From Candidatus Parcubacteria bacterium (GTDB lineage: Bacteria; Patescibacteriota; Patescibacteriia; UBA1558; GWA2-36-10), in the NCBI GenBank assembly GCA_018669975.1, contig JABHSK010000009.1, positions 51,127-115,126 of the forward strand: DNA of 64,000 nucleotides, read 5' to 3'. A program made the position numbers and the translations under genes. This document shows, one piece after another, positions 1,643-50,701 of this stretch. A model generated the notes under the pieces. The model searched no databases and was not told the DNA's origin. It worked only from the letters and a program-made list of their open reading frames with translations. Within the stretch, counting starts at the first letter, position 1; every line of letters begins with the position of its first letter.

Positions 1643-2263
1643 TTAGGTTCTATTTTTGATAATAAATACCGCCAACATTATCACCAAAAGACCAAATACA
1701 ACATACACCACTATTCCCTGTGGTAATTTGGAATCACCAGCCGCATCAACAGATTGTTGTTGGATTAAATCTTCTGACTGTTCTAGAGAGCCAAATAATT
1801 CTGGCTGCGCTTCCTCGTTTGCACCTCGCTTAACTGGAGTTGGTGTGGGTACTGATGATTTAGACGCTGGTATTTTATCTAAACTAGTAGCTGGACAAGC
1901 ATAAACACTTAAACTCCCTACAGCTTCCTCCAGACCTCTTTTAATAGGTGTATCGCCGATAATATAAGTATCTCCAACAAAAACTATTGGCACTCCACCT
2001 CTGGTGATGGCATGCTTAGCAAACATTTGATTTAATAAATCCGCATTATTTTGATCCTCATAAACTTCATACCAATTAATCTGCCAGGTGGGATTATCAT
2101 TGGCAAGTTGAGTTATAAATGGTTTTACTGCTTCACAATGTGAACAACCGATACCATAGAAAAAATCAACACAAGGCCCACCAGCTGCTTGAGTTTTGTT
2201 AATATTTAACAAAAGACTACTAGCAAAAAATAATATTGATAAAATAAAAATAATTTTCTTCAT
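1643..2263 (-). CDS. secreted thioredoxin-fold thiol-disulfide oxidoreductase, membrane-anchored by a C-terminal TM helix
   Basis: N-terminal signal peptide, CSHC (CxxC) motif, Pro/Thr-rich linker (VPTPTPV), hydrophobic C-terminal helix IVVYVVFGLLVIMLAVFII. Confidence 0.55.
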   Translation of the reverse strand: MKKIIFILSILFFASSLLLNINKTQAAGGPCVDFFYGIGCSHCEAVKPFITQLANDNPTWQINWYEVYEDQNNADLLNQMFAKHAITRGGVPIVFVGDTYIIGDTPIKRGLEEAVGSLSVYACPATSLDKIPASKSSVPTPTPVKRGANEEAQPELFGSLEQSEDLIQQQSVDAAGDSKLPQGIVVYVVFGLLVIMLAVFIIKNRT

Positions 2264-7366: not shown

Positions 7367-8671
7367 CTACTCAAACAAAACCATAATACTTACTAATAAT
7401 GGGAAATCTATTTTAACAATTTGCCCATTGGATAATAATATATCAGCAAGTGTTCTTCCCCAGGGATTCAAAAATCCAATCAAAGCAACTACAATTGAAA
7501 TAGCTGTTGTTGTGGTAAATAATAACAAAAAGTTATATGATCTTTTCTTGGTAAACAATAAAAGAAGGAAAAAATAAAGTAGCGGCGTAATAGCAATAAG
7601 CCAACGATAACCAAAGGATGCTCCAGTGTAAACCCTAACCTTTAAAGAATAATATAAAATTATAATTAAAAAACCCACGAAAATTATAAGTGCCTCTAAC
7701 CTAAAATGTGCTTTTCTGTTTCTTAAAATTTTATAAATTGAATAAATTGAAAATAAGAGAATTGGGGTATATAAAAATAATCCATGTGTGCCAAACAATA
7801 TATTTATCAAATAAACCAATGGTCTACTCCTTATTGCTGTGCCGTAGGCAACGCTTACTGGATCCCAGAATTCTGGATGAAATTGAGGTAGCAGAAAATC
7901 ACCAGTAACCTGGTAATTAAGTACCACCTGTAGAATCAACATAGGTAGGGCTGCCAAAATATAGTAAATTATATATTTTTTAGGAAATGTTACTAAACAG
8001 TAAATAAAAAATAAAAATAAAAATGTTAAACCAGTCGGAATATCAATTACCGCTGCCAAAGAAATAAAAAATCCTGATAAACTCAAATATTTTTTATAGT
8101 TATTGGATTTCTTTAATTTTAATTTTAACAAAAAATAAAACCCTATAAACAACAAACTACCCGCGATAGTGTGATTGTTTAAAGAAATAAAAAAAGAAAA
8201 AAATAATGTTCCTAAACCAAAACCTAGTAATAGCCATGTCCTATATTCTTTTCTAATATCTAATAATTTAATAGTTTTGTGGAGGATAAATAATAAGGCG
8301 AAAAAACTACCTCCCACCAAAATTAAATTAATAAAATAAATAGCCCAGCTTTGATCTAACATTCGAATATCAAGATTGAAAACATTGTATAGAACAAAAT
8401 ATACCCCCGCTCCAGCTACTGACAAAACTGGCGGTTTAGAAGAATAATAATTACCATCCCGAAGTATTTTATCATCAGTATTAATCTGATAATCATTGAT
8501 CACTAGTGTGCCTTGCTCAACTATGGCTTGCATAGTCATAAAGCGTGATGAGTTATTGGTACTATCTGAATGGGGTCGTGTAAAAGCTAAGGCAAAGATA
8601 GCAAAAAACATAATCACCAGCAAAAGCTGGGATTTTATAAAATATTGTGCAATGTGTTTTTTGAAACCCAT
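7367..8671 (-). CDS. polytopic integral membrane protein, possible GT-C-fold glycosyltransferase
   Basis: At least 10 hydrophobic helices; sits inside a glycosyltransferase/methyltransferase locus; no recognisable catalytic motif. Confidence 0.35.
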   Translation of the reverse strand: MGFKKHIAQYFIKSQLLLVIMFFAIFALAFTRPHSDSTNNSSRFMTMQAIVEQGTLVINDYQINTDDKILRDGNYYSSKPPVLSVAGAGVYFVLYNVFNLDIRMLDQSWAIYFINLILVGGSFFALLFILHKTIKLLDIRKEYRTWLLLGFGLGTLFFSFFISLNNHTIAGSLLFIGFYFLLKLKLKKSNNYKKYLSLSGFFISLAAVIDIPTGLTFLFLFFIYCLVTFPKKYIIYYILAALPMLILQVVLNYQVTGDFLLPQFHPEFWDPVSVAYGTAIRSRPLVYLINILFGTHGLFLYTPILLFSIYSIYKILRNRKAHFRLEALIIFVGFLIIILYYSLKVRVYTGASFGYRWLIAITPLLYFFLLLLFTKKRSYNFLLLFTTTTAISIVVALIGFLNPWGRTLADILLSNGQIVKIDFPLLVSIMVLFE

Positions 8672-37800: not shown

Positions 37801-39426
37801 ATGCCTGAAAAATCTCAAAATAAACATAATAAACTATTCACTTGGATTAAACAACACAAATTATTGCTACTAATAATAGTCGTGTTTTTGATTCTAAACA
37901 ACCTTTCTTATATCATAGGTTTTTGGCAAAGCAGTCAAAGCTCTGAACTAATATACAGAGTTACTCCACTTATGAACAGAGCCGATCATTTTGTCTACCT
38001 ATCACACATAGAACAAGGTAAAGAGGGTCATCTAATGACTAAGTTGCTCTATAATCACCTGGCTGAAAACAATGTTATGTTCTCACCACACTGGTATATA
38101 ATTGGGCAGTTTAGCAATATAACAAATATCAGTGTAGTCACTAGTTATTTTATTTGGCGAATATTATTATTAATTCCGTTTCTATTTTTACTATGGTGGT
38201 TTATCAAAAAAATATTCTCTAGTTATAAAAAATCAATTTTGGCCATGCTGACGATATTGTTTGGCAATGGTATAGGAACCATCTTTATAAATATATTTCC
38301 AGAAAGCACTCTAAAACCGACCAATTTGTGGATGCCTGAAAGTATTACATTCTTATCACTCAATCAGACGCCGTTATTTGTCTTGGCGCTGATATTGATC
38401 CTGTTGGTGTTTATATCATTTATAGAAAGTGTAAAAAGTAAAAAAAATTATTTAATACTAATCTGCTGTTCACTAAACCTGCTACTAACTCTAATACACA
38501 CCTATGATATGGTGATCACCCTAGCTGTTTTAACTGGTTGGTCAGCTTTTAAATTTTATCAAACTAGGCATAAAAAAATAATCCTCTACTTAGCTTATTT
38601 ATACTTTGTATCTGGAACGGGTGCGCTCTACTATGCCTGGCTATTAAGGCGTGACTTAGCGATGATTCAATGGAACGCTCAAAACCTGTGCATCTCTGGT
38701 CCATTAACTGAATATCTATGGGGAATGGGACTTTTATTCGTATTCTCAATAGCTGGTATAGTGTACATTATCAAAAAAAGATTATTCCAAAACGATTACC
38801 TAAATCTAATCACTGTCTGGGCCGCTATTGGTTGGGTGTTAATTTATCTACCAGTACATTTTAATCGTCGCTTATCTAATGGTTGGCACATGGCCCTGGC
38901 TATTACTTCTTTGTATTTTTTCCTTTGGCTACACAAAAAATTTCCTGTGGTGCTGCGGGGCGCATTAATTACTGTAGTGGGCTTCCTGGTGTTCTTTGAT
39001 ACTATGATATTTTTATCCGTAGACTCATCAGTAACACGCAGTAATGAGTCACATTATTTTTTTCATAGCCAGACTAAGCAAGAAATATATCAACAAATAC
39101 AAGCCACCACCGATGAACACGATGTTATACTGACCCGTGGCATAGATGGTAATCACTTGCCTGGTTTTACTGCTAGAAAAGTATACACTGGGCACCTAAT
39201 GGGCACCTGGGAAGCCGTTCTAAAAAATAGAGAAGTTGAAAAATTATGGTCAAACCCTAATGATATATCAGAATGGTTAGTAGACAAAAATATTGCCTAT
39301 ATTTTTGCTAGTCGTTTTTATATCCCTGAATTTGATAAAATAAAATGGCTCGCTAAAGAAAAATATATCGAGCCAATCATAGATAATGATGAATTTATAC
39401 TTTATAAAATATTGTTAGAAGAATAA
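37801..39426 (+). CDS. large polytopic membrane protein, unknown function (possible GT-C-like)
   Basis: 541 aa, at least 11 TM helices, C-terminal soluble domain; TGn-TAAAAT extended -10 at about 37783-37794. Confidence 0.35.
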   Translation: MPEKSQNKHNKLFTWIKQHKLLLLIIVVFLILNNLSYIIGFWQSSQSSELIYRVTPLMNRADHFVYLSHIEQGKEGHLMTKLLYNHLAENNVMFSPHWYIIGQFSNITNISVVTSYFIWRILLLIPFLFLLWWFIKKIFSSYKKSILAMLTILFGNGIGTIFINIFPESTLKPTNLWMPESITFLSLNQTPLFVLALILILLVFISFIESVKSKKNYLILICCSLNLLLTLIHTYDMVITLAVLTGWSAFKFYQTRHKKIILYLAYLYFVSGTGALYYAWLLRRDLAMIQWNAQNLCISGPLTEYLWGMGLLFVFSIAGIVYIIKKRLFQNDYLNLITVWAAIGWVLIYLPVHFNRRLSNGWHMALAITSLYFFLWLHKKFPVVLRGALITVVGFLVFFDTMIFLSVDSSVTRSNESHYFFHSQTKQEIYQQIQATTDEHDVILTRGIDGNHLPGFTARKVYTGHLMGTWEAVLKNREVEKLWSNPNDISEWLVDKNIAYIFASRFYIPEFDKIKWLAKEKYIEPIIDNDEFILYKILLEE

Positions 39427-40150: not shown

Positions 40151-41755
40151 ATGCCAAGAAAAAAACGTACCACTTTATTAAACAAAATAACTGCTCTCAA
40201 ATTAGACTATGTGTTGCTTTTTGTTTTAATGTCACTATACTATGGACGATTACAGTGGAATAATTTCATCGGTGATCCAGATGGCTTTTACCATGCTAAA
40301 ATAACCACCTTTCTAGGCCAGGGCACTTTACTTAAAAGCTTACCCTGGATGCAGTTTACCACCCTAAAAGAACACTATACTGATCATCATCTACTATATC
40401 ATTTGTTACTTTTGCCTTTTACCTATATAACCGACAATGCTCTATTGGCTGTAAAGATAGCTACAGTTTTGTTTGCTGTAATAATGATTTTAGTCTTTTA
40501 TTGGCTACTCAAACAATTCAAGATTGTTTGGCCATTTGTCTTTGCTTTGTTATTTATAAGCCTGGAGGCGGTCAGCTTTAGATTGGCGCTAGTTAAGGCT
40601 AATTCTTTATCATTATTAGTCATTTGGTTATTGATATATGCCATGTTCCGTCAAAAAACATGGCTAATGGCTTTGCTGGGTTTTGTTTTTGTATGGCTTT
40701 ATGGTGGTTGGGCACTATCCATTATTATTTTCTTTATTTATTTCTTTAGTGAAAAAATATATGAACGCCTTAATACAAATAAATTAAAATTATTTTGGTC
40801 CAAAGTAGTCCATACTTTTAATTTTAAAAAGGGAAGCGCTAAAAACCATCGTATATTTCTAGGATTAATTCTGGGACTATTAGCTGGACTAGTTATTAAT
40901 CCCTATTGGCCACATAATTTATATTTTTATTATCAACAAATAATACAAATTGGCGTTATCAACCTTGGTGGTCAACTACAAGTAGGCGGTGAATGGTATG
41001 GCACATCTTTTATGCATATTATTTCTTCCTTGCCGCATATTTTTGTTCTAGCTAGTCTTTTGATTTTAATGTTATTTATAAACTACCAAAAAATTAGTAA
41101 AAAAACTTGGTTTAGTTTTTTGTTAAGTTTTGTCTTCTTGTTATTGACTGTAAAATCACGTCGTTATATAGAATACTTCTCTCCTTTCTTACTATTATTC
41201 ACGGCCTGTGCTTTCACTGATGTTAAATCTATGGTTAATTGGAAAAAAATAAAAAAATTCTGGAGTAATAATCCAACTTATTTAAAGGTGTACTTAGGTT
41301 TGGCCGGCACACTGTTTACCATATTGATACTACCGGTTATTTTCACTAAAACCTGGGATGTGGCTATCCCACAGAATTGGACCCTAGAAAAATTTCGCCC
41401 TGGCTTACTCTGGCTAAAACAAAACACACCAGCGGACACACTAATTTTCCATGGAGATTGGGATGAATGGCCAATACTCTTTTATCATAATGATCACAAC
41501 CGCTACATAGTTGGCTTAGACCCTACTTTTATGTACAACTTTGATGCTAATCTACAGCAAGAGCACACTGATATCACTGCTGGAAAAATAAAAGGGATAG
41601 TTTCAGAAAAAATAAAAAAAGACTTTGGTGCTGACTATGTTTTTATAGAAAAAAAAGAACATGCCGCGTTTGGAAACAACTTAGACATGGACTCCTTTGC
41701 TACGCTTGTTTATGAAGACGAAGAAGTGGCTATTTATCACTTGATAAGTCCCTAA
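40151..41755 (+). CDS. large polytopic membrane protein, unknown function
   Basis: 534 aa, about 12 TM helices, C-terminal soluble domain. Confidence 0.35.
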   Translation: MPRKKRTTLLNKITALKLDYVLLFVLMSLYYGRLQWNNFIGDPDGFYHAKITTFLGQGTLLKSLPWMQFTTLKEHYTDHHLLYHLLLLPFTYITDNALLAVKIATVLFAVIMILVFYWLLKQFKIVWPFVFALLFISLEAVSFRLALVKANSLSLLVIWLLIYAMFRQKTWLMALLGFVFVWLYGGWALSIIIFFIYFFSEKIYERLNTNKLKLFWSKVVHTFNFKKGSAKNHRIFLGLILGLLAGLVINPYWPHNLYFYYQQIIQIGVINLGGQLQVGGEWYGTSFMHIISSLPHIFVLASLLILMLFINYQKISKKTWFSFLLSFVFLLLTVKSRRYIEYFSPFLLLFTACAFTDVKSMVNWKKIKKFWSNNPTYLKVYLGLAGTLFTILILPVIFTKTWDVAIPQNWTLEKFRPGLLWLKQNTPADTLIFHGDWDEWPILFYHNDHNRYIVGLDPTFMYNFDANLQQEHTDITAGKIKGIVSEKIKKDFGADYVFIEKKEHAAFGNNLDMDSFATLVYEDEEVAIYHLISP

Positions 41756-43631
41756 GCTCTGTTTCTTCAGTCAATTCTAATTTAGGTACAACGTCCTTGA
41801 TTAGGCTAATTGCATTAATTCCCTGATAAGAAAAAATTTGATAAGAGTTTATATCTGAACTGAGATAGTAATAAAAATGTACTAACTCATTCTCTGGCCA
41901 ATCTTTTTCTGAAAATACACCATAGTCTAGGGGCATATCAAAATCATAATTTCGCCCATAAAAACGCACCAGATAACTATTGTCCTCGGTGTGATTTTTT
42001 TGTAAAGTAAGCTCCAGTACCCCATCAGTAAAATTTGCCCCTATTAAAAAATCATCTTCCGCAAACCCTATTGGTTTCTCGTCGGTGCGATATAATTCTA
42101 TATTATCCTGAGTGGCATGTTGCTTGTTTTGCCAAAGTAATAAATTATTCCAAGCCTTAATTAAAGAATAATCGTTTAATACCTGTTGCCAATTATTTGG
42201 AATATCATCTCTCTTGTATTCTAAAAAAGAAGCTATATTTTTTTCTACAATAGTGGCTAAAAATTGAGAATTGTCCACCAGTATATAATCTACTGGCGGT
42301 AACTCAAACTCAAAACCACAAAACTGCCCACAACCAAAGTATGAGCCAGCCAAAGTGTAAACCTCTTGTCTGGTGCTAGCTGGCGCAATAAAGGTTGACT
42401 CCGCCACCAAGCTAGCCTCTGGTGGTATCTGAGCAAAAAATTCTTGCTTAGCTTGAACTAATTCCCTTGGATACTTTTTAAATAATATATCTTTAGCTGG
42501 CGATAAAAAGATTGAAAAATAAACTATTGTGACTACAAAAATTAATGTAACAAAACCAAAATTTTTATAAATATGTTTACTGCCCGAAAATCTTTCCTGT
42601 AGAAGAACCCTTTTAAAAGCAAAAATTAGGGCTATAAAAATCCCCGGCATAAATAATAGAGTATAGTGCGTACTATAAGCCATGAAATTAAAACCGCTAC
42701 CACTTAAAAGAATCTGTAAAAAAGGTAAAAAGGCCAAAGAGAGGTATCTAGATTTCAAAAATGGCAGAAATAAGACTGGCAACATAATTACTGCAATGCT
42801 GAGAAAATTATTTATATTTATTAAATGCCAAATAAACTGTATTGGATGAGTTAACCAACTAATAATGATACCTAAAATACTTTCTCCCCCCAGCCAACCA
42901 TAATAAGCAAAAAACTTATAGCTACCCGCTATAGAAAAATAACTAATAATCTTAAGTGCAGATAAAAAATAAACAACTGGTAATAACAAACTAAACAGTT
43001 TCCATTTTAAACTACGTTTATGCAGTATTGCCAACCAAGTGAATGCTAACAGTATTAAGCTAATATCTTCTCTGACAAGTAGTGCTAAAATAAAAAATAA
43101 CACAAATAATTTAAAACTTCTCTGCTGATAAAAATAAAATACCCAGAAAATAAAAAATACAGCTATCGGCAACAGGTGAAATTCAAAGACATTGGCGCTG
43201 TGCACAAAAGGATTAAGTAGCCACATTAAAGCAACAATCAATGACACTACTTTGTTTTTAACGATATTTCTACTAATTAAATATATAGGCCAAGCGCTCA
43301 ATCCCAAAATAACGCTCTGTAATATTAGTAATGTTTCTGGCGTCTGCCAAAACCAATAAAAAGGCAGTAATAAAAAAATGATTGGTGTAAAATGGTCAGC
43401 TAAATAAATGTTGAAATTAACCGTTCCGGCGAACCAATCACCGTGCAGGGTATTAAAAAAGACTTGATTAAAGATTGCTAAATCATAGGCGTTGTAGCTA
43501 AAATTATAGTACTTCTTAAGGCTTAAAAAGGCCATTAGGAGCACGTATAGCACTGTGGCAATACCCAACACCAAAGCACTGTGTTTATTAGCAAAATTGC
43601 TTATTTTTGAGCTAAAATGTGACATATCCAT
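41730..43631 (-). CDS. large polytopic membrane protein, DUF2079-like (putative GT-C-fold glycosyltransferase)
   Basis: 633 aa; N-terminal YDLAIFNQ ... LADHFTPIIFLLLPFYWFW resembles DUF2079 conserved block; C-terminal extracytoplasmic domain. Confidence 0.4.
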   Translation of the reverse strand: MDMSHFSSKISNFANKHSALVLGIATVLYVLLMAFLSLKKYYNFSYNAYDLAIFNQVFFNTLHGDWFAGTVNFNIYLADHFTPIIFLLLPFYWFWQTPETLLILQSVILGLSAWPIYLISRNIVKNKVVSLIVALMWLLNPFVHSANVFEFHLLPIAVFFIFWVFYFYQQRSFKLFVLFFILALLVREDISLILLAFTWLAILHKRSLKWKLFSLLLPVVYFLSALKIISYFSIAGSYKFFAYYGWLGGESILGIIISWLTHPIQFIWHLININNFLSIAVIMLPVLFLPFLKSRYLSLAFLPFLQILLSGSGFNFMAYSTHYTLLFMPGIFIALIFAFKRVLLQERFSGSKHIYKNFGFVTLIFVVTIVYFSIFLSPAKDILFKKYPRELVQAKQEFFAQIPPEASLVAESTFIAPASTRQEVYTLAGSYFGCGQFCGFEFELPPVDYILVDNSQFLATIVEKNIASFLEYKRDDIPNNWQQVLNDYSLIKAWNNLLLWQNKQHATQDNIELYRTDEKPIGFAEDDFLIGANFTDGVLELTLQKNHTEDNSYLVRFYGRNYDFDMPLDYGVFSEKDWPENELVHFYYYLSSDINSYQIFSYQGINAISLIKDVVPKLELTEETELRDLSSDK

Positions 43632-43780: not shown

Positions 43781-44503
43781 ATGAAGACGTCACAATTGTT
43801 AATCTCGTTACTCTTGGTAGCAGTTATGAGCGCTATCCTGAGTGGCTGTGGTGCCACAAAACAATGGTATGGTTCATCACCTAATGGAACCTACGATCAT
43901 CGAGGCCCGCGCCTCGATACCAACAACTCACCCAAGGTCGAAAATATCATCGACAACCAAAGCAAAGAAATGCTTTTTGTCGACATCGAAGGACATGACC
44001 TGAGTTTCAGTGAGCATTTGGTTCAGGTCAACCCTGGTACCAAGCTGACTCGCAAGGGTCGTAGCTATCGTCGCCTCAAGGTGACTGTTCGCTGGATGGG
44101 CACTGGCTTCCGCAACACCATCGGTCACACCGAAGAGGAGATGAAATTCCTGATGCCCGGCCTATACTCCGGTGACCCTATTGTCATCACCGATGCCATG
44201 CTTCGAGGTCAGATGCCTATGCGTGGCATCATCATCTGCCAGGGTGACCCCACCCTATATCAAGATGATCGAGGTCATCGCTTCAAGATGAACAACGGTG
44301 ACAAAATTGAAGTCAACATGTCTTCTGGTCCAATTGAGTTCAAATTCAGATCACTGCGAGATCCCTCTCGCTTTGGCAGCAGGACTTATCCTGATTGCAT
44401 TGATCTCGAAACTGAACAATATGAAGTCGTTGGACCCGATGGCAAAAAGAAGCGTTATGACTTCACTGTCATTGTCGATGAATCCTGGCGTCATCGCTGG
44501 TAG
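43781..44503 (+). CDS. lipoprotein of unknown function, compositionally foreign (GC about 50%)
   Basis: AGGAGG SD; signal peptide plus lipobox ILSGCG; codon usage rich in CGC/CGT/CTG/GGC/ATC unlike neighbours; no family recognised. Confidence 0.6.
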   Translation: MKTSQLLISLLLVAVMSAILSGCGATKQWYGSSPNGTYDHRGPRLDTNNSPKVENIIDNQSKEMLFVDIEGHDLSFSEHLVQVNPGTKLTRKGRSYRRLKVTVRWMGTGFRNTIGHTEEEMKFLMPGLYSGDPIVITDAMLRGQMPMRGIIICQGDPTLYQDDRGHRFKMNNGDKIEVNMSSGPIEFKFRSLRDPSRFGSRTYPDCIDLETEQYEVVGPDGKKKRYDFTVIVDESWRHRW

Positions 44504-44525: not shown

Positions 44526-44559
44526 GCGCCGCAGCTCGAAAGCTGCGGCGCGTTTTTTT
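44526..44559. terminator. strong GC-rich intrinsic terminator (11-bp stem, T8), shared with the convergent pilin-like operon
   Basis: gcgccgcagctcgaaagctgcggcgcgttttttt. Confidence 0.7.
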
Positions 44560-44572
44560 AATAAAAATATAT

Positions 44573-44956
44573 TTATGGATTAAGCGGAGTATTACCAGTT
44601 GAAGCTTTTAGTAGGCTATCAAAAACAAATCTAACAATAGCATACGAAGTAACAACTATAACTAAACCTATGGTTGCATTCTTAATTGATTCCTTGGCTT
44701 CTTTTATTCTATCTGCATTACCTTGAGAAGTCATCCATTTGAAACCACCTAAAATAATCAAAACAACAAAGAGTGTCCCTAAGACAGCGAGCAAACCTCT
44801 AACGATAGATGCAATTACATCTGTAATTGGTCTTTCAATTAATCCCGTTTGACCAGCTATTTGATCTAGTCCTCCAGCAGACTCTAAAGGACCCGCTGAA
44901 GCAACCAACGGAGCTAAAGCAAACAATAAAATAAACTTGTATTTTAAATTTTTCAT
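44573..44956 (-). CDS. small secreted two-helix protein, paralog 1 of 4 (pilin-like, VirB2/TrbC-type architecture)
   Basis: Signal peptide, hydrophobic helix, conserved GGFKWMTSQGNADRIKEAK core, second hydrophobic helix. Confidence 0.45.
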   Translation of the reverse strand: MKNLKYKFILLFALAPLVASAGPLESAGGLDQIAGQTGLIERPITDVIASIVRGLLAVLGTLFVVLIILGGFKWMTSQGNADRIKEAKESIKNATIGLVIVVTSYAIVRFVFDSLLKASTGNTPLNP

Positions 44957-45043: not shown

Positions 45044-45388
45044 TTAGATAGTTTCGTTTTGTAAAGATGTTAGTACGAAACGTGATATTGCGTAAGCAGT
45101 CAAGATGATGACCAAACCAACTATACCTGCTCCAATAAGCTTTTTAGCTTCATCAACTTTATCAGTGTTGCCTTGAGAAGTCATCCATTTGAAACCACCC
45201 ATAAGGATGATCAAAGTAGCTAAAATTCCCAAGAAACCCAAGACGATGTTTACAACAGAAGATGCAGTGTCACCTAGTTCTTTAGTACCCAGGTTTGAAT
45301 TCTTCATTGAATTAACACCGTATACGTCAAGCTGAGCTGATGCTGCCATCGGCATGAAAAGTAATGCGCTAGTGATAAGTTTGTTCAT
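45044..45388 (-). CDS. small secreted two-helix protein, paralog 2 of 4 (pilin-like); has its own promoter and strong SD
   Basis: GGFKWMTSQGNTDKVDEAK core; GGGGGTG SD 7 nt upstream. Confidence 0.45.
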   Translation of the reverse strand: MNKLITSALLFMPMAASAQLDVYGVNSMKNSNLGTKELGDTASSVVNIVLGFLGILATLIILMGGFKWMTSQGNTDKVDEAKKLIGAGIVGLVIILTAYAISRFVLTSLQNETI

Positions 45389-45460: not shown

Positions 45461-45793
45461 TTAGCTAGTGCCAGCCAAAGTACTGAAAAAGTATCTTATT
45501 ATAGCATAGCTCATGAAAATAGCCACTAGTCCGAAAATAGCCCAAACTATAGTGTCTTTTCCTCTTTTTACTTTGTCAGTATTACCAGCTGAGGTCATCC
45601 AAGTGACGCCTCCCCAAACCAACATTAGTAAAGCCACAGCACCAACTATGCCTAATATACCTTTGACAGCAAAACCTATAACCGTAGGTATATCTTCCGC
45701 TGGCAATGGATTGGGCAACTCGGCCGCCTTAACCAACAAAGGCGCAAAGAATAATAATGTAGCCAAAAATGTTTTATGTTTGTTTTTAATCAT
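45461..45793 (-). CDS. small secreted two-helix protein, paralog 3 of 4 (pilin-like)
   Basis: GGVTWMTSAGNTDKVKRGK core; 25-nt gap to paralog 4. Confidence 0.45.
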   Translation of the reverse strand: MIKNKHKTFLATLLFFAPLLVKAAELPNPLPAEDIPTVIGFAVKGILGIVGAVALLMLVWGGVTWMTSAGNTDKVKRGKDTIVWAIFGLVAIFMSYAIIRYFFSTLAGTS

Positions 45794-45818: not shown

Positions 45819-46472
45819 TTAAAGTGACGCAGCATTTAATGTGCAAAGATTAGTGTTGCTTCCTGGACACAAGCCAGCTTCAGTTACAGGACCTACTGGA
45901 ATAGCGCCCATTTCACTAAAATCAAAACAAGACCAATTTCCTGAATCATCCAAAAGATTCTTTAATTGACATTTTGTTACGCAGGTTTCGTTGTGGCTAG
46001 ACTTATCACCACTAAAGGTGTCCGTGCCAGTACAAACATAGTTTGTTTCTGTTTCATTACAACGACTATCTTTTGCTTTCTCAGTACAAGAAGCTGCTAT
46101 TTTATATCTTGAATTTGTAACACCCAAAATATCATTAACAAAAAATGATGTTAATAAATAACTACTAAAAGCTATAAACAAAGCAATGAGGGTATTAATC
46201 ATAATCTGCTGACCACGCTTTACTCTGTCAGCATTACCACCAGAAACCAACCATTGAATACCTCCCCAAATAAAATATAGTAGCGCTATTGCTCCCATGC
46301 CACCGAGCAACATTTGAATTAAATAGGTAAAACCTAAAGTGATATCTTCTAGGCTACAATTTCCATCTTTAATACAGGTCTCTGGAAGTTTATCTAAAAA
46401 TCCTTGAGCAAAGCCAACATTTGGCGCCAAGATGACAATTAATAAAATTGAAAAAAATAAAATTTTATTCAT
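45819..46472 (-). CDS. paralog 4 of 4: pilin-like N-terminal module fused to a 110-aa Cys-rich C-terminal domain
   Basis: GGIQWLVSGGNADRVKRGQ core; C-terminal region with 12 Cys (CTEKAKDSRCNETETNYVCTG...CVTKCQ...CFDF...CPGSNTNLC). Confidence 0.45.
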   Translation of the reverse strand: MNKILFFSILLIVILAPNVGFAQGFLDKLPETCIKDGNCSLEDITLGFTYLIQMLLGGMGAIALLYFIWGGIQWLVSGGNADRVKRGQQIMINTLIALFIAFSSYLLTSFFVNDILGVTNSRYKIAASCTEKAKDSRCNETETNYVCTGTDTFSGDKSSHNETCVTKCQLKNLLDDSGNWSCFDFSEMGAIPVGPVTEAGLCPGSNTNLCTLNAASL

Positions 46473-47838
46473 TTGTTTTTGTGTATGTTTTATTAATACG
46501 TTCTACAAATAGTTTGAGCGGTGTGCCCGCTAAATCAAAGGTATATTCTCCAGATACAAGCCCATCTATAATTTCAGCTGTATATTGTTCGGCTAAATCT
46601 ATATTATAACCCTCATACCAGTTATCAGCTGTTAAAACCTGAGAGGCAAAAACCTTTAAATCGGTGTCTTCCATCTGCTCTGCTATCAGAGATCTTAACG
46701 CAGTTGGTTTTTTATTAGCATTTAAATAAACCCTGACAATTTCCTTACCAGAAGCATTCTGAATAAAATCCCAGGCTGAAGGAGCATTGATAGATTTCTT
46801 AGCTACTACTGTTATCCAATAATCTGTATAATATTTTGTCCCTTCGGCTCCTCTAGTTTGAGGAAAGTTAGTAATACCCCAATCAAATACCACACCCCTA
46901 TCTCTTAGCTCATCCGCGTGGTAACTATAGCCGAAAAAATAGGCCAGCCTACCATTGGCAAACATCTCAAAAGCATTTGGCAAATCATCGCTCCAGCTAT
47001 AACTCAGCCTACCAGGTCTAGCAAAATCAGTATAAAAATTAAGCACTTGTGTCAGCCTATCTCTTGATCCGCCATCTTTAATTGGACTAAACCATTCTCC
47101 TTTCATGTTAACATCGCTCTGCAATAATAAACTAGATAAAATATCAAAAAAACGAGGTATGTTATCAGTTCCGCCTAGGGAAACAGCTGAGTACAGCACC
47201 CTATTATCCTCTGTAACCCTGGTTATCTTTGGTACCTGCTCAATTAAATCATGAAAATCTCTCATTGGCTCTGGAATACTAGATTTGTCCAATAGGCTAG
47301 AATTATAAAAAGTCACTAGGGTTTCCAGAGAAAATGGTAAACCGTATATTTTATCATCCAATACTACATCATCATATACTACTGGCACATACCTTGTTTT
47401 AACATCCTGGGGAGATAGACTTTTAAAAGATTTGAGCGTCAGTGTTCGCTCTGGCTTAATAGAGCCCTTCATTTCCCAAATTGGCACGTTAATACTTGGT
47501 GGTATTGGCACTAAACGATGCTGATATTCTTTAAGCCAGGTAACTGGAATAGCGAAAAGGTCTGGACCACGATCATCTGCCCAGGCTTCTAATAATTTTT
47601 GCTCGTACTCCTCGTACCTAAAATTACGATAAGTTATCTTAATTGTTGGATGCTTAGCTTGATATGTATTGATTAAGGGTGCTACTTGAGCAGCTGTATC
47701 CCAAACACCCCAGTATTCTAAATATACTGGTCTATATTCTACTCCTTTTTTACAAGTCATTCCCTGACAACCAAATCCAGCAGAAACAACAAAAACTGCT
47801 AATATTAGAAGTGTGAAAAGTTTTAAATGTCTTTTCAT
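46465..47838 (-). CDS. extracellular solute-binding lipoprotein (ABC-transporter family 1 SBP-like)
   Basis: Signal peptide with Cys (AGFGCQG), 457 aa periplasmic-binding-protein-like; overlaps the paralog 4 start by 8 nt. Confidence 0.55.
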   Translation of the reverse strand: MKRHLKLFTLLILAVFVVSAGFGCQGMTCKKGVEYRPVYLEYWGVWDTAAQVAPLINTYQAKHPTIKITYRNFRYEEYEQKLLEAWADDRGPDLFAIPVTWLKEYQHRLVPIPPSINVPIWEMKGSIKPERTLTLKSFKSLSPQDVKTRYVPVVYDDVVLDDKIYGLPFSLETLVTFYNSSLLDKSSIPEPMRDFHDLIEQVPKITRVTEDNRVLYSAVSLGGTDNIPRFFDILSSLLLQSDVNMKGEWFSPIKDGGSRDRLTQVLNFYTDFARPGRLSYSWSDDLPNAFEMFANGRLAYFFGYSYHADELRDRGVVFDWGITNFPQTRGAEGTKYYTDYWITVVAKKSINAPSAWDFIQNASGKEIVRVYLNANKKPTALRSLIAEQMEDTDLKVFASQVLTADNWYEGYNIDLAEQYTAEIIDGLVSGEYTFDLAGTPLKLFVERINKTYTKTNE

Positions 47839-48707: not shown

Positions 48708-48742
48708 GTATATATTATACTAAAATTTAAGCTTTATGTAAA

Positions 48743-49417: not shown

Positions 49418-50701
49418 CTATTTTATTTTTTTATCTTGTTGCACCACCAAGGTTAAACCAAGCATAATAAAAAATAGAACACTTAGATCATTCTTAAAAT
49501 ATGGAACATCTACTAAACCATGGATAAACCAAGTTAACCACATCATACTAAGTGGCCAAGCCCAAACACTTCGATTAGCAAATAATCTCTTGAGCAAATA
49601 GATGATCGATATTAGTATAAGCAAAAATACAATGAGTCCAGCTAAGCCGAGCTCTGTCCAAAAATTCAAAAATATATTATGCGGGTATAAATAAATTTCC
49701 AACCATTGATACTGATGATAAGCCAATAAACCGTCCTGATAACCATCAATACCTAATCCAAAGATAAGGTTATCCTGAAGCATATCGGTTGTTTCTTGCC
49801 ATTGATTCAGACGGATATCTACCGAACTAGATTGTAGGTCTAGTTTTGGATTTATATTTGTTGTCAAAGCTGACTCTATTTTTTCTGTTGGTAAAATTAC
49901 AATTGCAATTAAGGTCATTATTACTAGGGGAATGCCGATTTTCCGAATCTTTTTAGCTAAAATTAGCCAAAGTAAAATCGACAAACCTAGAGCTAAAATC
50001 GCTCCATCACTCCTAGACAATAAAGCCAAAATTAGACCCGCTATAAAGGCTATTAAGTAGATAATTTCTTTCAGCTTATTTTTACTGTAGGCCCACAGCC
50101 CAAAAAACAAAGCTGTTATTGGCGCTACTAATAAAGCCAAGGCATTGGGGTAAGAAAATACTCCTGTTAATCTTTTTATATTAGGTGGATTATAAGCAGC
50201 AATAAAATTCCAATCACTAAAATTTTGATACATGGTTGTTATCAATAACCAAATCACCAACACACCTAGAGCCTTAATAATATTTATAATATCCTGTCGA
50301 CTTTTTACTGAGTATATAAAAACTAAAAAAAACATAATTGGTTCCAGCCAATAGGCTCGCCATAAACCCAAAGAAGTATAGGTGAAATTGATAACAAGGG
50401 CTAAAATGCTAACTAATAACCAAGTCACTAATAAATATCGCCACTTAACCGGCAAAACATTGTACGCTTTTTTACTTAGTGAAAAATTTATCTTAGTTAT
50501 CCTCTTACCCTTAAGTAACCAAATAACAAACAACGAAATTATCATCAACTCTAAAAACGTTGACGGTAAATTGAACAACGTAACACGCCATAAATATGTA
50601 GGTAGCAAGGCTACGATAATAGCCACACCCCAGATTGTACGTTTATAGCTTGATATAACAAAGGCTATTAACGCTATCAGCATAAATATCTCGCTAATCA
50701 T
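49418..50701 (-). CDS. O-antigen ligase/polymerase-like (Wzy/WaaL family) polytopic membrane protein
   Basis: 427 aa, about 12 TM helices with a large loop; operon context with the Wzx-like flippase. Confidence 0.4.
   Translation of the reverse strand: MISEIFMLIALIAFVISSYKRTIWGVAIIVALLPTYLWRVTLFNLPSTFLELMIISLFVIWLLKGKRITKINFSLSKKAYNVLPVKWRYLLVTWLLVSILALVINFTYTSLGLWRAYWLEPIMFFLVFIYSVKSRQDIINIIKALGVLVIWLLITTMYQNFSDWNFIAAYNPPNIKRLTGVFSYPNALALLVAPITALFFGLWAYSKNKLKEIIYLIAFIAGLILALLSRSDGAILALGLSILLWLILAKKIRKIGIPLVIMTLIAIVILPTEKIESALTTNINPKLDLQSSSVDIRLNQWQETTDMLQDNLIFGLGIDGYQDGLLAYHQYQWLEIYLYPHNIFLNFWTELGLAGLIVFLLILISIIYLLKRLFANRSVWAWPLSMMWLTWFIHGLVDVPYFKNDLSVLFFIMLGLTLVVQQDKKIK

Follow-up and report, generated by a model that had tools for sequence, protein, structure and literature searches.

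A VirB2-like pilin of a Candidatus Parcubacteria bacterium bearing an orphan eight-cysteine C-terminal domain

The open reading frame (ORF) analysed here, pilA(Cys), lies at positions 45819..46472 on the minus strand of a 64,000-nucleotide stretch of contig JABHSK010000009.1 from a Candidatus Parcubacteria bacterium (hereafter, the window) and belongs to an array of four genes, pilA(Cys), pilB, pilC and pilD, that encode VirB2-like pilins of the type IV secretion system (T4SS) class. According to the ORF list and Pfam, its product of 217 amino acids (aa) combines such a pilin with a C-terminal cysteine-scaffold domain, denoted D1 below. The identical NCBI entry is 'hypothetical protein HOB10_05305' of Candidatus Parcubacteria bacterium. 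The original prediction, which was made from the letters of the window, flagged the interval 45819-46150, that is, residues ~108-217 and the stop codon in the 3' half of pilA(Cys), as a candidate adhesin or tip domain of the fourth of several pilin-like paralogs. The gene is indeed the fourth by forward-strand coordinate, but in the direction of transcription it is the first gene of the array.

Architecture of pilA(Cys) and its sister pilins

Five parts can be delineated in pilA(Cys), all on the minus strand. A Sec-type signal peptide (residues 1-22; 46407..46472; MNKILFFSILLIVILAPNVGFA, followed by Q) is predicted from the sequence and the hydrophobic segment of residues 1-27; it has the layout MNK, a hydrophobic core and VGFA directly before the Q, and its last residue, A22, is invariant in an alignment of 13 sequences and at least 90% conserved among 39. 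The mature N-terminal segment (46344..46406) carries a cysteine pair, C33 and C39, just past the signal peptide, within the motif GFLDxLPxxCxxxGxCxLxD. The pilin core (46125..46343), which was delimited using AlphaFold, hydropathy and the PF18895 match, consists of helix 1 (residues ~44-76), a basic loop (SGGNADRVKRGQ, 77-88) and helix 2 (89-116). It is followed by a flexible linker of about 12 aa (residues ~117-128; 46089..46124; GVTNSRYKIAAS), recognised by its low predicted local distance difference test (pLDDT) score and by its length, which differs between homologues. The protein ends with D1, an eight-cysteine domain of about 90 aa with a predicted small alpha/beta fold (residues 129-217; 45822..46088).

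Beyond the second hydrophobic helix, which ends with ...SFFV at residue 112, pilA(Cys) runs on for 105 aa, so that the cysteine-rich extension of about 110 aa described in the original prediction is real; its quoted tail peptide, CTEKAKDSRCNETETNYVCTGTDTFSGDKSSHNETCVTKCQ...CFDF...CPGSNTNLC, is present exactly as given in the 217-aa translation. The count of 12 cysteines reported for this tail was wrong, the actual number being eight (residues 129, 138, 147, 164, 168, 182, 202 and 210); together with C33 and C39, the protein contains ten. The reported richness in Asn, Thr and Ser holds (12 Thr, 11 Ser and 10 Asn, 33 of the 105 residues), as does the lack of a hydrophobic segment in the extension, where the Kyte-Doolittle mean over 11-residue windows never exceeds 0.94.

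The three genes that follow encode short, cysteine-free VirB2-like pilins, also on the minus strand: pilB (45461..45793, 110 aa; PF18895, E=2.1e-12), which has one-to-one orthologues in related loci, pilC (45044..45388, 114 aa; E=5.3e-9) and pilD (44573..44956, 127 aa; E=4.8e-11). The best conserved short pilin is pilC, which is 68% identical to its orthologue in locus L005 and is present in two copies in loci L013 and L014. All three score above the gathering threshold of PF18895 (T4SS_pilin; 36.5-47.4 bits), pilA(Cys) matches the same family over residues 40-111 (31.5 bits, cutoff 26.6), and pilB additionally matches PF04956 (TrbC/VirB2; 28.6 bits, cutoff 27.9). Because of these matches, the four ORFs are classified as conjugation-type (VirB2-like) pilins rather than type IV pilins; the pilin kinship proposed in the original prediction therefore stands, with the class specified as VirB2/TrbC-type. 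The motif GGxxW(L/M)xSxGN is common to pilA(Cys) and pilB-D.

The topology of pilA(Cys) is that of the VirB2/TrbC family, with a Sec signal peptide, two hydrophobic helices and a short basic loop. Members of this family are small, single-module proteins with precursors of about 70-130 aa, whereas pilA(Cys) has 217 aa and an additional folded domain of 90 aa, and thus represents a variant architecture. Other classes of pilus proteins do not fit. The N-terminus (MNKILFFSILLIVILAPNVGFAQGFLD) lacks a prepilin-peptidase motif, the class III signal peptide (a glycine before the cleavage site, then F/M-T-L-x-E) is not present in pilA(Cys), and two helices with a loop replace the single helix of type IV pilins. 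The C-terminus (...CPGSNTNLCTLNAASL) contains neither the LPXTG motif nor the C-terminal hydrophobic segment of sortase-dependent pilus adhesins. Nor does pilA(Cys) conform to the VirB5/TraC fold of VirB5-type tip adhesins, an elongated helical bundle with a globular appendage in a protein separate from the pilin. A profile of 20 short pilins compared with PDB sequences gave no link to the solved TraA or VirB2 structures. The description that suits pilA(Cys) best is that of a VirB2-like pilin from Patescibacteria with an orphan eight-cysteine ectodomain.

The three short pilins also come close to NCBIfam NF045849, the Mbov_0395 family of pilin-like conjugal transfer proteins from integrative and conjugative elements of Mycoplasma (33-36 bits, cutoff 40). 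Judging by these sub-cutoff scores, the pilins of the candidate phyla radiation (CPR) appear to be linked to the pilin-like component of conjugative elements in monoderms.

The cysteine-rich domain D1

The combination of pilin and D1 is conserved well beyond the window. The identical protein is recorded on 13 contigs, the longest of 844 kb; the gene was read on 20 contigs from several sources and is nucleotide-identical on the independent contigs L001 and L002. A word-indexed search yielded 12 homologues with 39-71% identity, and an exhaustive hidden Markov model search of 1.84 billion cluster representatives with the domain alone yielded 34 proteins (E<=1e-3), in nearly all of which the domain is located at about residues 110-215 of a protein of 200-360 aa. 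The 39 aligned sequences share the pilin module as their N-terminal half. One continuous ORF encodes the same architecture in nine GTDB species genomes and in 38 homologues, the most distant of which are about 40% identical.

A fusion of the extension with a separate downstream ORF by frameshift or misassembly, which the original prediction had named as a possible objection, is ruled out by the continuity of the ORF in the 38 homologues and by identical DNA on independent contigs. A chance cysteine-rich tail is at odds with the same recurrence and with composition: cysteine makes up 0.49% of the residues in the 52 proteins of the window, and eight cysteines in 105 aa have a binomial probability of ~6e-8, or ~1e-3 once corrected for all positions, this being the densest cysteine stretch of the window. 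We accordingly assign a negligible probability to an artefact of either kind.

An unrelated protein outside the window, P0040 (756 aa), is Asn/Lys-rich and contains nine six-cysteine repeats (C..GGQC...C......LCPGGNDNKCC) that precede a GH25 muramidase domain. The D1 profile matches these repeats weakly and in part, over its C-terminal half (W.C...GLCPG.....C; E=5.7e-5 summed over the nine repeats), a similarity that we judged to be at the level of motifs only.

The cysteines form a conserved framework. All ten are invariant or at least 90% conserved in the full-length alignment of 39 sequences, of which 38 have an even number of cysteines after helix 2 (8, 10, 18, 20 or 22). Two sequences deviate in their cysteine positions: P0032, which is shorter (192 aa) and possibly truncated, lacks both C202 and C210, and P0010 has lost C147 and gained a cysteine a few residues before C164, keeping the total at eight. 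Even parity together with these two patterns is what an all-disulfide scaffold predicts. The sister pilins, which have no cysteines, lack counterparts of C33 and C39 as well.

With the full-length alignment, AlphaFold2 predicts a helical hairpin formed by helices 41-76 and 81-117, a linker with pLDDT <50 (residues 117-126) and a separate C-terminal domain with pLDDT of ~72-81. Modelled alone, the domain is a compact small alpha/beta structure with a mean pLDDT of 80.1 (75.7-80.1 across five models) and a predicted template modelling score (pTM) of 0.71. These values point to a folded domain.

The loop between the helices holds the positive charges R/K/R (RVKRG). From the sequence, the positive-inside rule and the known topology of VirB2/TraA pilins, we infer that the N-terminus is outside, that helix 1 runs inward and helix 2 back out, and that both termini, including the extension, are extracytoplasmic. 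The location of both termini outside is supported by relatives in which the pilin module bears cysteine-rich extensions on the N-terminal side or on both sides. In solved conjugative pili, it is the termini that reach the outer surface, with the loop lining the lumen (cited in PMC12857230), so that a C-terminal appendage would be displayed on the surface. Taken together, the conserved cysteines and their even parity, the signal peptide with the hairpin topology and the domain model with pLDDT of 80 agree with the folded, extracytoplasmic cysteine-scaffold domain that had been proposed, and D1 is very probably an exported domain stabilised by predicted disulfides.

No relatives of this fold were detected. 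Foldseek searches with D1 returned nothing significant from the PDB (best E 5.9) or among predicted viral structures (best E 4.0), and D1 had no significant match in the PDB by sequence profile, in Pfam (E<=5) or in NCBIfam. Since it lacks matches in all four collections, D1 qualifies as an orphan fold.

The flexible linker could, in principle, be a cleavage site. In RP4 TrbC, short C-terminal peptides are removed before cyclisation, and terminal processing is known for VirB2/TrbC-family pilins, so that the extension of pilA(Cys) might be a C-terminal propeptide that is cut off within residues 117-128 during maturation and has no function in the mature structure. We consider this highly unlikely: 90 residues with eight conserved cysteines, a confident predicted fold and, in relatives, further appended modules far exceed a leader-like peptide, and no TraF-like peptidase was seen in the window.

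A candidate oxidant for extracytoplasmic disulfides, at 1643..2263 on the minus strand, is an exported protein of 206 aa. Besides a signal peptide and a C-terminal membrane anchor, it has a CSHC motif within a thioredoxin-like context and a linker rich in Pro and Ser. The original prediction listed it as a secreted CxxC thiol-disulfide oxidoreductase. The signal peptide, CSHC motif and membrane anchor are present, but all profile matches fall below threshold: Pfam DSBA (15.4 bits, cutoff 25.6; E=0.016), PDB DsbA 1bed (E=0.008), NCBIfam glutaredoxin (E=0.006) and thioredoxin. No VKOR or DsbB partner was seen among the window ORFs. MdbA-like oxidoreductases have been reported to be enriched in CPR (bioRxiv 10.1101/335083).

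D1 and the pilin module evolve at different rates. Compared with two orthologues (~47-50% identity overall), the pilin module of the window protein is 66-68% identical and D1 28-35%. Among four sequences about 70% identical (the window protein and three orthologues), the Nei-Gojobori rate of nonsynonymous substitution (dN) is 0.18-0.31 in D1 vs 0.05-0.12 in the pilin module, so that the dN of D1 is 3-5 times that of its own pilin module. This contrast in dN and identity indicates that D1 evolves rapidly on a fixed cysteine frame, a pattern that is as expected of an exposed domain. The elevated ratio to synonymous substitution (dN/dS) that had been suggested as a check is absent: dN/dS is ~0.1-0.3, with saturated dS (1.1 to >2.6). 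The nucleotide-identical copies of the window gene in L001 and L002 offer no variation at the population level.

Purifying selection of this strength and the high conservation of the locus would fit a housekeeping role, in which pilA(Cys) is a structural or anchoring subunit and D1 binds the cell's own wall or a surface glycopolymer, or caps or terminates the filament, thereby serving in assembly, anchoring or length control and not in host recognition. The position of pilA(Cys) as the first gene of its operon, the adjacent surface glycan genes and the weak partial profile match to the cysteine-rich repeats preceding the muramidase domain of P0040 are compatible with such a role. However, the likeness to P0040 does not extend beyond motifs, and the rapid divergence of the non-cysteine positions of D1 (28-35% vs 66-68% identity) is less expected when the target is a conserved self structure. 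We regard this explanation as rather unlikely.

Genomic neighbourhood and modularity in relatives

Directly upstream of pilA(Cys) is a gene for a solute-binding protein (SBP) of the SBP_bac_1/8 type (46465..47838, minus strand; assigned from Pfam and synteny), a probable lipoprotein, the stop codon of which overlaps the ATG of pilA by 8 nt. An SBP gene always occupies this position upstream of the pilin array (in the window and in loci L003, L005, L006, L008-L019 and L021-L023), and the pairing is kept at 32-38% identity in distant GC-rich arrays. No gene for an ABC permease or ATPase was found in the 64 kb of the window, which marks the protein as an orphan SBP tied to the pilin array. Further upstream of the SBP gene are galU, a DUF6498 gene, genes for a Wzy_C protein and a Wzx-type flippase, recA and ftsK. 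A near-consensus promoter-like site (11/12 matches; 48714-48742, minus strand) is located upstream of galU, and a bidirectional terminator-like hairpin with a perfect 11 bp stem and nine GC pairs, identified by terminator scan, separates pilD from the convergent gene (44526..44551), suggesting a galU-SBP-pilABCD transcription unit. Past the terminator come the convergent gene, which encodes a lipoprotein, a DUF2079 gene and more genes for multi-pass membrane proteins.

The order FtsK-HTH-RecA-Wzx-WzyC-GalU-SBP-pilA(Cys)-pilB-pilC(-pilC')-pilD-DUF2079-orf534-YebC-RuvC, where HTH stands for a helix-turn-helix protein, recurs in metagenomic contigs and in at least eight GTDB species-representative genomes, and the species genomes with the syntenic locus are labelled Parcubacteria, Nomurabacteria or Patescibacteria. 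In these species (at least eight), the array invariably opens with pilA, which is followed by three or four short pilins. Given this recurrence across species, the array is a stable one-to-one orthologous chromosomal locus rather than a mobile or hypervariable one. The genome records of four of the loci (L012, L022, L023 and L024) are titled 'uncultured Gammaproteobacteria bacterium'; from their gene content and synteny with Parcubacteria, they are probably mislabelled metagenome-assembled genomes.

Several neighbours deserve a brief description. The product of the convergent gene (43781-44503, plus strand) has 240 aa, a signal of the lipoprotein type (...LSGC) and no match in Pfam or NCBIfam; a poorly conserved counterpart (28-31% identity) is found at the same place in relatives. 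Membrane proteins around the array are encoded at 7367-8671 (minus), 37801-39426 (plus), 40151-41755 (plus), 41730-43631 (minus) and 49418-50701 (minus), and three large multi-pass members of this set have no Pfam match and the look of GT-C-type glycosyltransferases. The DUF2079 protein weakly matches a 'cell surface glycopolymer formation' family, and the Wzy_C protein weakly matches the O-antigen ligase RfaL and the pilin O-oligosaccharyltransferase TfpM. With these genes, Wzx and GalU around the array, glycosylation of the Ser/Thr/Asn-rich pilin domain is conceivable.

In several relatives, additional cysteine-rich modules are appended to the pilin (P0006, P0008, P0011, P0017 and P0020, and the first pilin ORFs of L012, L013 and L014), and a second cysteine-rich tail following D1 brings the number of cysteines to 20-24 in all. 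One such module, D2, with the motif CVHxRxSCHYGG...A(A/V)DL...H(V/I)H, is found only in PF18895 proteins of about 300 aa; P0020 has the arrangement pilin+D1+D2, and P0043 has pilin+D2 without D1. The motif raised the suspicion that D2 is a LAS/M15 zinc peptidase, which found no support in Pfam or in a PDB sequence search. A further extended cysteine-containing pilin is encoded in a relative at L020 9977-10897. Distant GC-rich arrays keep the galU-SBP-pilin order and encode pilins with long cysteine-rich N- and/or C-terminal extensions, the largest of which has 686 aa and 53 cysteines; extended pilins in other Patescibacteria are located at L021 4758-5450, at L022 8377-9336 and 9338-10255, and at L023 9365-10795, 10849-12909 and 13412-14389.

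As far as can be read from these sequences, the C-terminus appears to serve as a modular display site. The presence of extensions on either terminus across arrays makes the grafting of cysteine-rich ectodomains onto VirB2-like pilins a recurrent theme in the phylum. Papers on T4SS in Patescibacteria (PMC12102498, PMC12857230, PMC10633639) make no mention of domain-bearing VirB2-like pilins, and domain-decorated T4SS pilins look like a general, apparently undescribed theme.

Possible role of pilA(Cys) and comparison with known systems

The reading that we favour is that pilA(Cys) may be a subunit of a filament and act in adhesion or recognition; we assign it a probability of roughly 0.4, and it draws on analogy with other pilus systems. 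Within the VirB2/TrbC-type array of this monoderm bacterium, it is probably a specialised, minor subunit; its incorporation into a filament, its place there and its binding function are what we infer from the combined observations.

The following sequence of events can be envisaged. Sec would export pilA(Cys), and the signal peptide would be cut after A22. The two hydrophobic helices would then insert into the membrane as a hairpin, with the basic loop in the cytoplasm (and facing the lumen in the pilus) and both termini outside the cell. The domain of ~90 residues, held on a linker of ~12 residues, would fold outside the membrane and be locked by four disulfides, with a C33-C39 bond forming a fifth small loop at the N-terminus; the exported CSHC protein of presumed thioredoxin fold (1643-2263) is the candidate oxidant for the folding of D1. 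The subunit might be drawn from the membrane into a filament together with the three plain pilins, showing D1 on the outer face of the pilus. Since pilA is the first gene of the operon, D1 would most likely be present at a low copy number or at the distal end, which is assembled first; by analogy with VirB5-primed assembly and with PilB/PilC of Streptococcus sanguinis, pilA(Cys) might be incorporated first and sit at the tip. There, D1 could act as a ligand-binding (adhesive or recognition) module directed towards the surface of a partner or host cell. Because monoderms lack an outer-membrane channel, an appendage of 10 kDa would not be sterically excluded. That D1 is part of a pilus touching the partner cell is plausible on these analogies, and the domain is a reasonable candidate for such a role.

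Several observations weigh against an adhesive filament subunit. The locus is conserved and chromosomal, not variable; dN/dS is well below 1, with no sign of diversifying selection at the level of the domain; and in sequence and fold searches D1 resembles no known adhesin, lectin or other domain. Neither all larger ORFs of the 64 kb window nor the 20 kb of syntenic sequence in relatives yielded VirB3, VirB4, VirB6, VirD4 or other T4SS machinery, so that filament assembly in this lineage is hypothetical. In Patescibacteria at large, a pilin gene is near virB4 in 1135 of the 1948 assemblies that have both, and the remaining assemblies are without such proximity (PMC12102498). Reviews report no visualised VirB2-type pilus of Patescibacteria (PMC12857230). 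Furthermore, in the one context examined (L025), a D2-type pilin fusion is solitary and away from any array, which fits a non-polymerised, membrane-anchored protein equally well.

The last point leads to an explanation in which pilA(Cys) itself is a membrane-anchored surface protein and not a filament subunit. The hairpin would merely anchor the cysteine-rich domain in the cytoplasmic membrane, and D1 would be a receptor or partner of the SBP lipoprotein, capture host molecules or organise the envelope. Besides the solitary pilin-D2 fusion and the lack of T4SS machinery near the array in the window and syntenic flanks, this explanation gains from the SBP gene, which is coupled to pilA in translation and is found ahead of it without exception, distant arrays included, and from the surrounding surface glycan and envelope genes (Wzx, Wzy_C, GalU, DUF2079 and the GT-C-like membrane proteins). 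Yet the loop motif GGxxW(L/M)xSxGN and the helix features that pilA(Cys) has in common with its sister pilins are retained, and its pilin module ranks with the best conserved of the four (66-68% identity), which is unexpected for a mere anchor; pilA(Cys) is also always co-encoded with plain pilins. On balance, we consider a membrane-anchored protein unlikely.

These findings have a broader significance. Host recognition and attachment in the ultra-small CPR/Patescibacteria are poorly understood, and D1 is a concrete, expressible candidate for the contact surface of the pilin-array apparatus; T4SS pilins, which are held to be minimal single-module proteins, can be modular in monoderms, as are the type IV pilins of Streptococcus. 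The conserved pairing with the SBP lipoprotein points to a connection, open to experimental test, of the pilin array with uptake from a partner cell. A more far-reaching possibility, which we hold as doubtful, is that VirB2-like pilins of monoderm Patescibacteria are modular scaffolds displaying interchangeable disulfide-rich ectodomains (D1, D2 and longer cysteine-rich modules with as many as about 50 cysteines) on either terminus, so that the pilus itself would be the host-recognition organelle. Because no outer-membrane channel limits the width of the filament in monoderms, these pilins would be free to become display scaffolds. Were this so, the pilus would replace a separate VirB5 or adhesin, might be enzymatic or nutrient-capturing and would work with the co-translated SBP lipoprotein, and D1 would represent both a novel fold and the first receptor-binding domain to be described for a VirB2-type pilus.

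The closest known counterparts of the window array are the VirB2-like pilin arrays that are widespread in Patescibacteria, where 441 arrays of 2-11 pilins were reported in 383 assemblies, and where the six-pilin array in a T4SS locus of Ca. Southlakia epibionticum ML1, the only species examined by transposon sequencing (Tn-seq), is essential (PMC12102498, PMC12857230, PMC10633639). The window array shares with these the families PF18895/PF04956, tandem divergent paralogs, a monoderm CPR host, the Sec signal peptide and the two-helix hairpin. It differs from the Ca. Southlakia type in that one member carries a ~90-aa eight-cysteine domain, and in that the array has neither virB4 nor other T4SS genes beside it and follows an SBP gene.

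Classical conjugative pilins (F TraA, Ti VirB2 and RP4 TrbC) have the same signal peptide, two hydrophobic helices and basic connecting loop as pilA(Cys). However, they are proteins of ~70-120 aa that carry no additional domain; head-to-tail cyclisation, which some of them undergo, is not compatible with keeping a C-terminal domain; and they cross an outer-membrane channel, which the monoderm host of pilA(Cys) does not have.

Tandem amplification and divergence of T4SS pilus components, as in the window array, are also found in TrwL/TrwJ of Bartonella and in the VirB2 paralogs of Anaplasma, which are thought to broaden surface interactions (PMC12102498). Those paralogs differ in sequence only and have no added domains, whereas the window array is one-to-one orthologous and stable across species.

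For the proposed role itself, the pilus-tip-adhesin analogy of the original prediction has to be moved from type IV and sortase-assembled pili to the VirB2-type T4SS pilus, the known tip protein of which, VirB5, is unrelated. In the VirB5/TraC model, a host-contacting element at the pilus tip nucleates assembly (PMC12857230), and the likeness of these tip adhesins to D1 is one of proposed role. In principle, the nearest parallel is provided by the modular type IV pilins of S. sanguinis, PilB with a vWA module and PilC with a lectin module (PMC8179133, PMC9934059), in which, as proposed for pilA(Cys), a binding module at the C-terminal end of a pilin makes an adhesive minor subunit in a monoderm. 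Type IV pili are an entirely separate class of filament, characterised by one N-terminal helix, a class III signal peptide and the PilD/PilB/PilC machinery, none of which pilA(Cys) has; the two systems share the principle of a pilin with a displayed C-terminal module and differ in the class of pilin that bears it.

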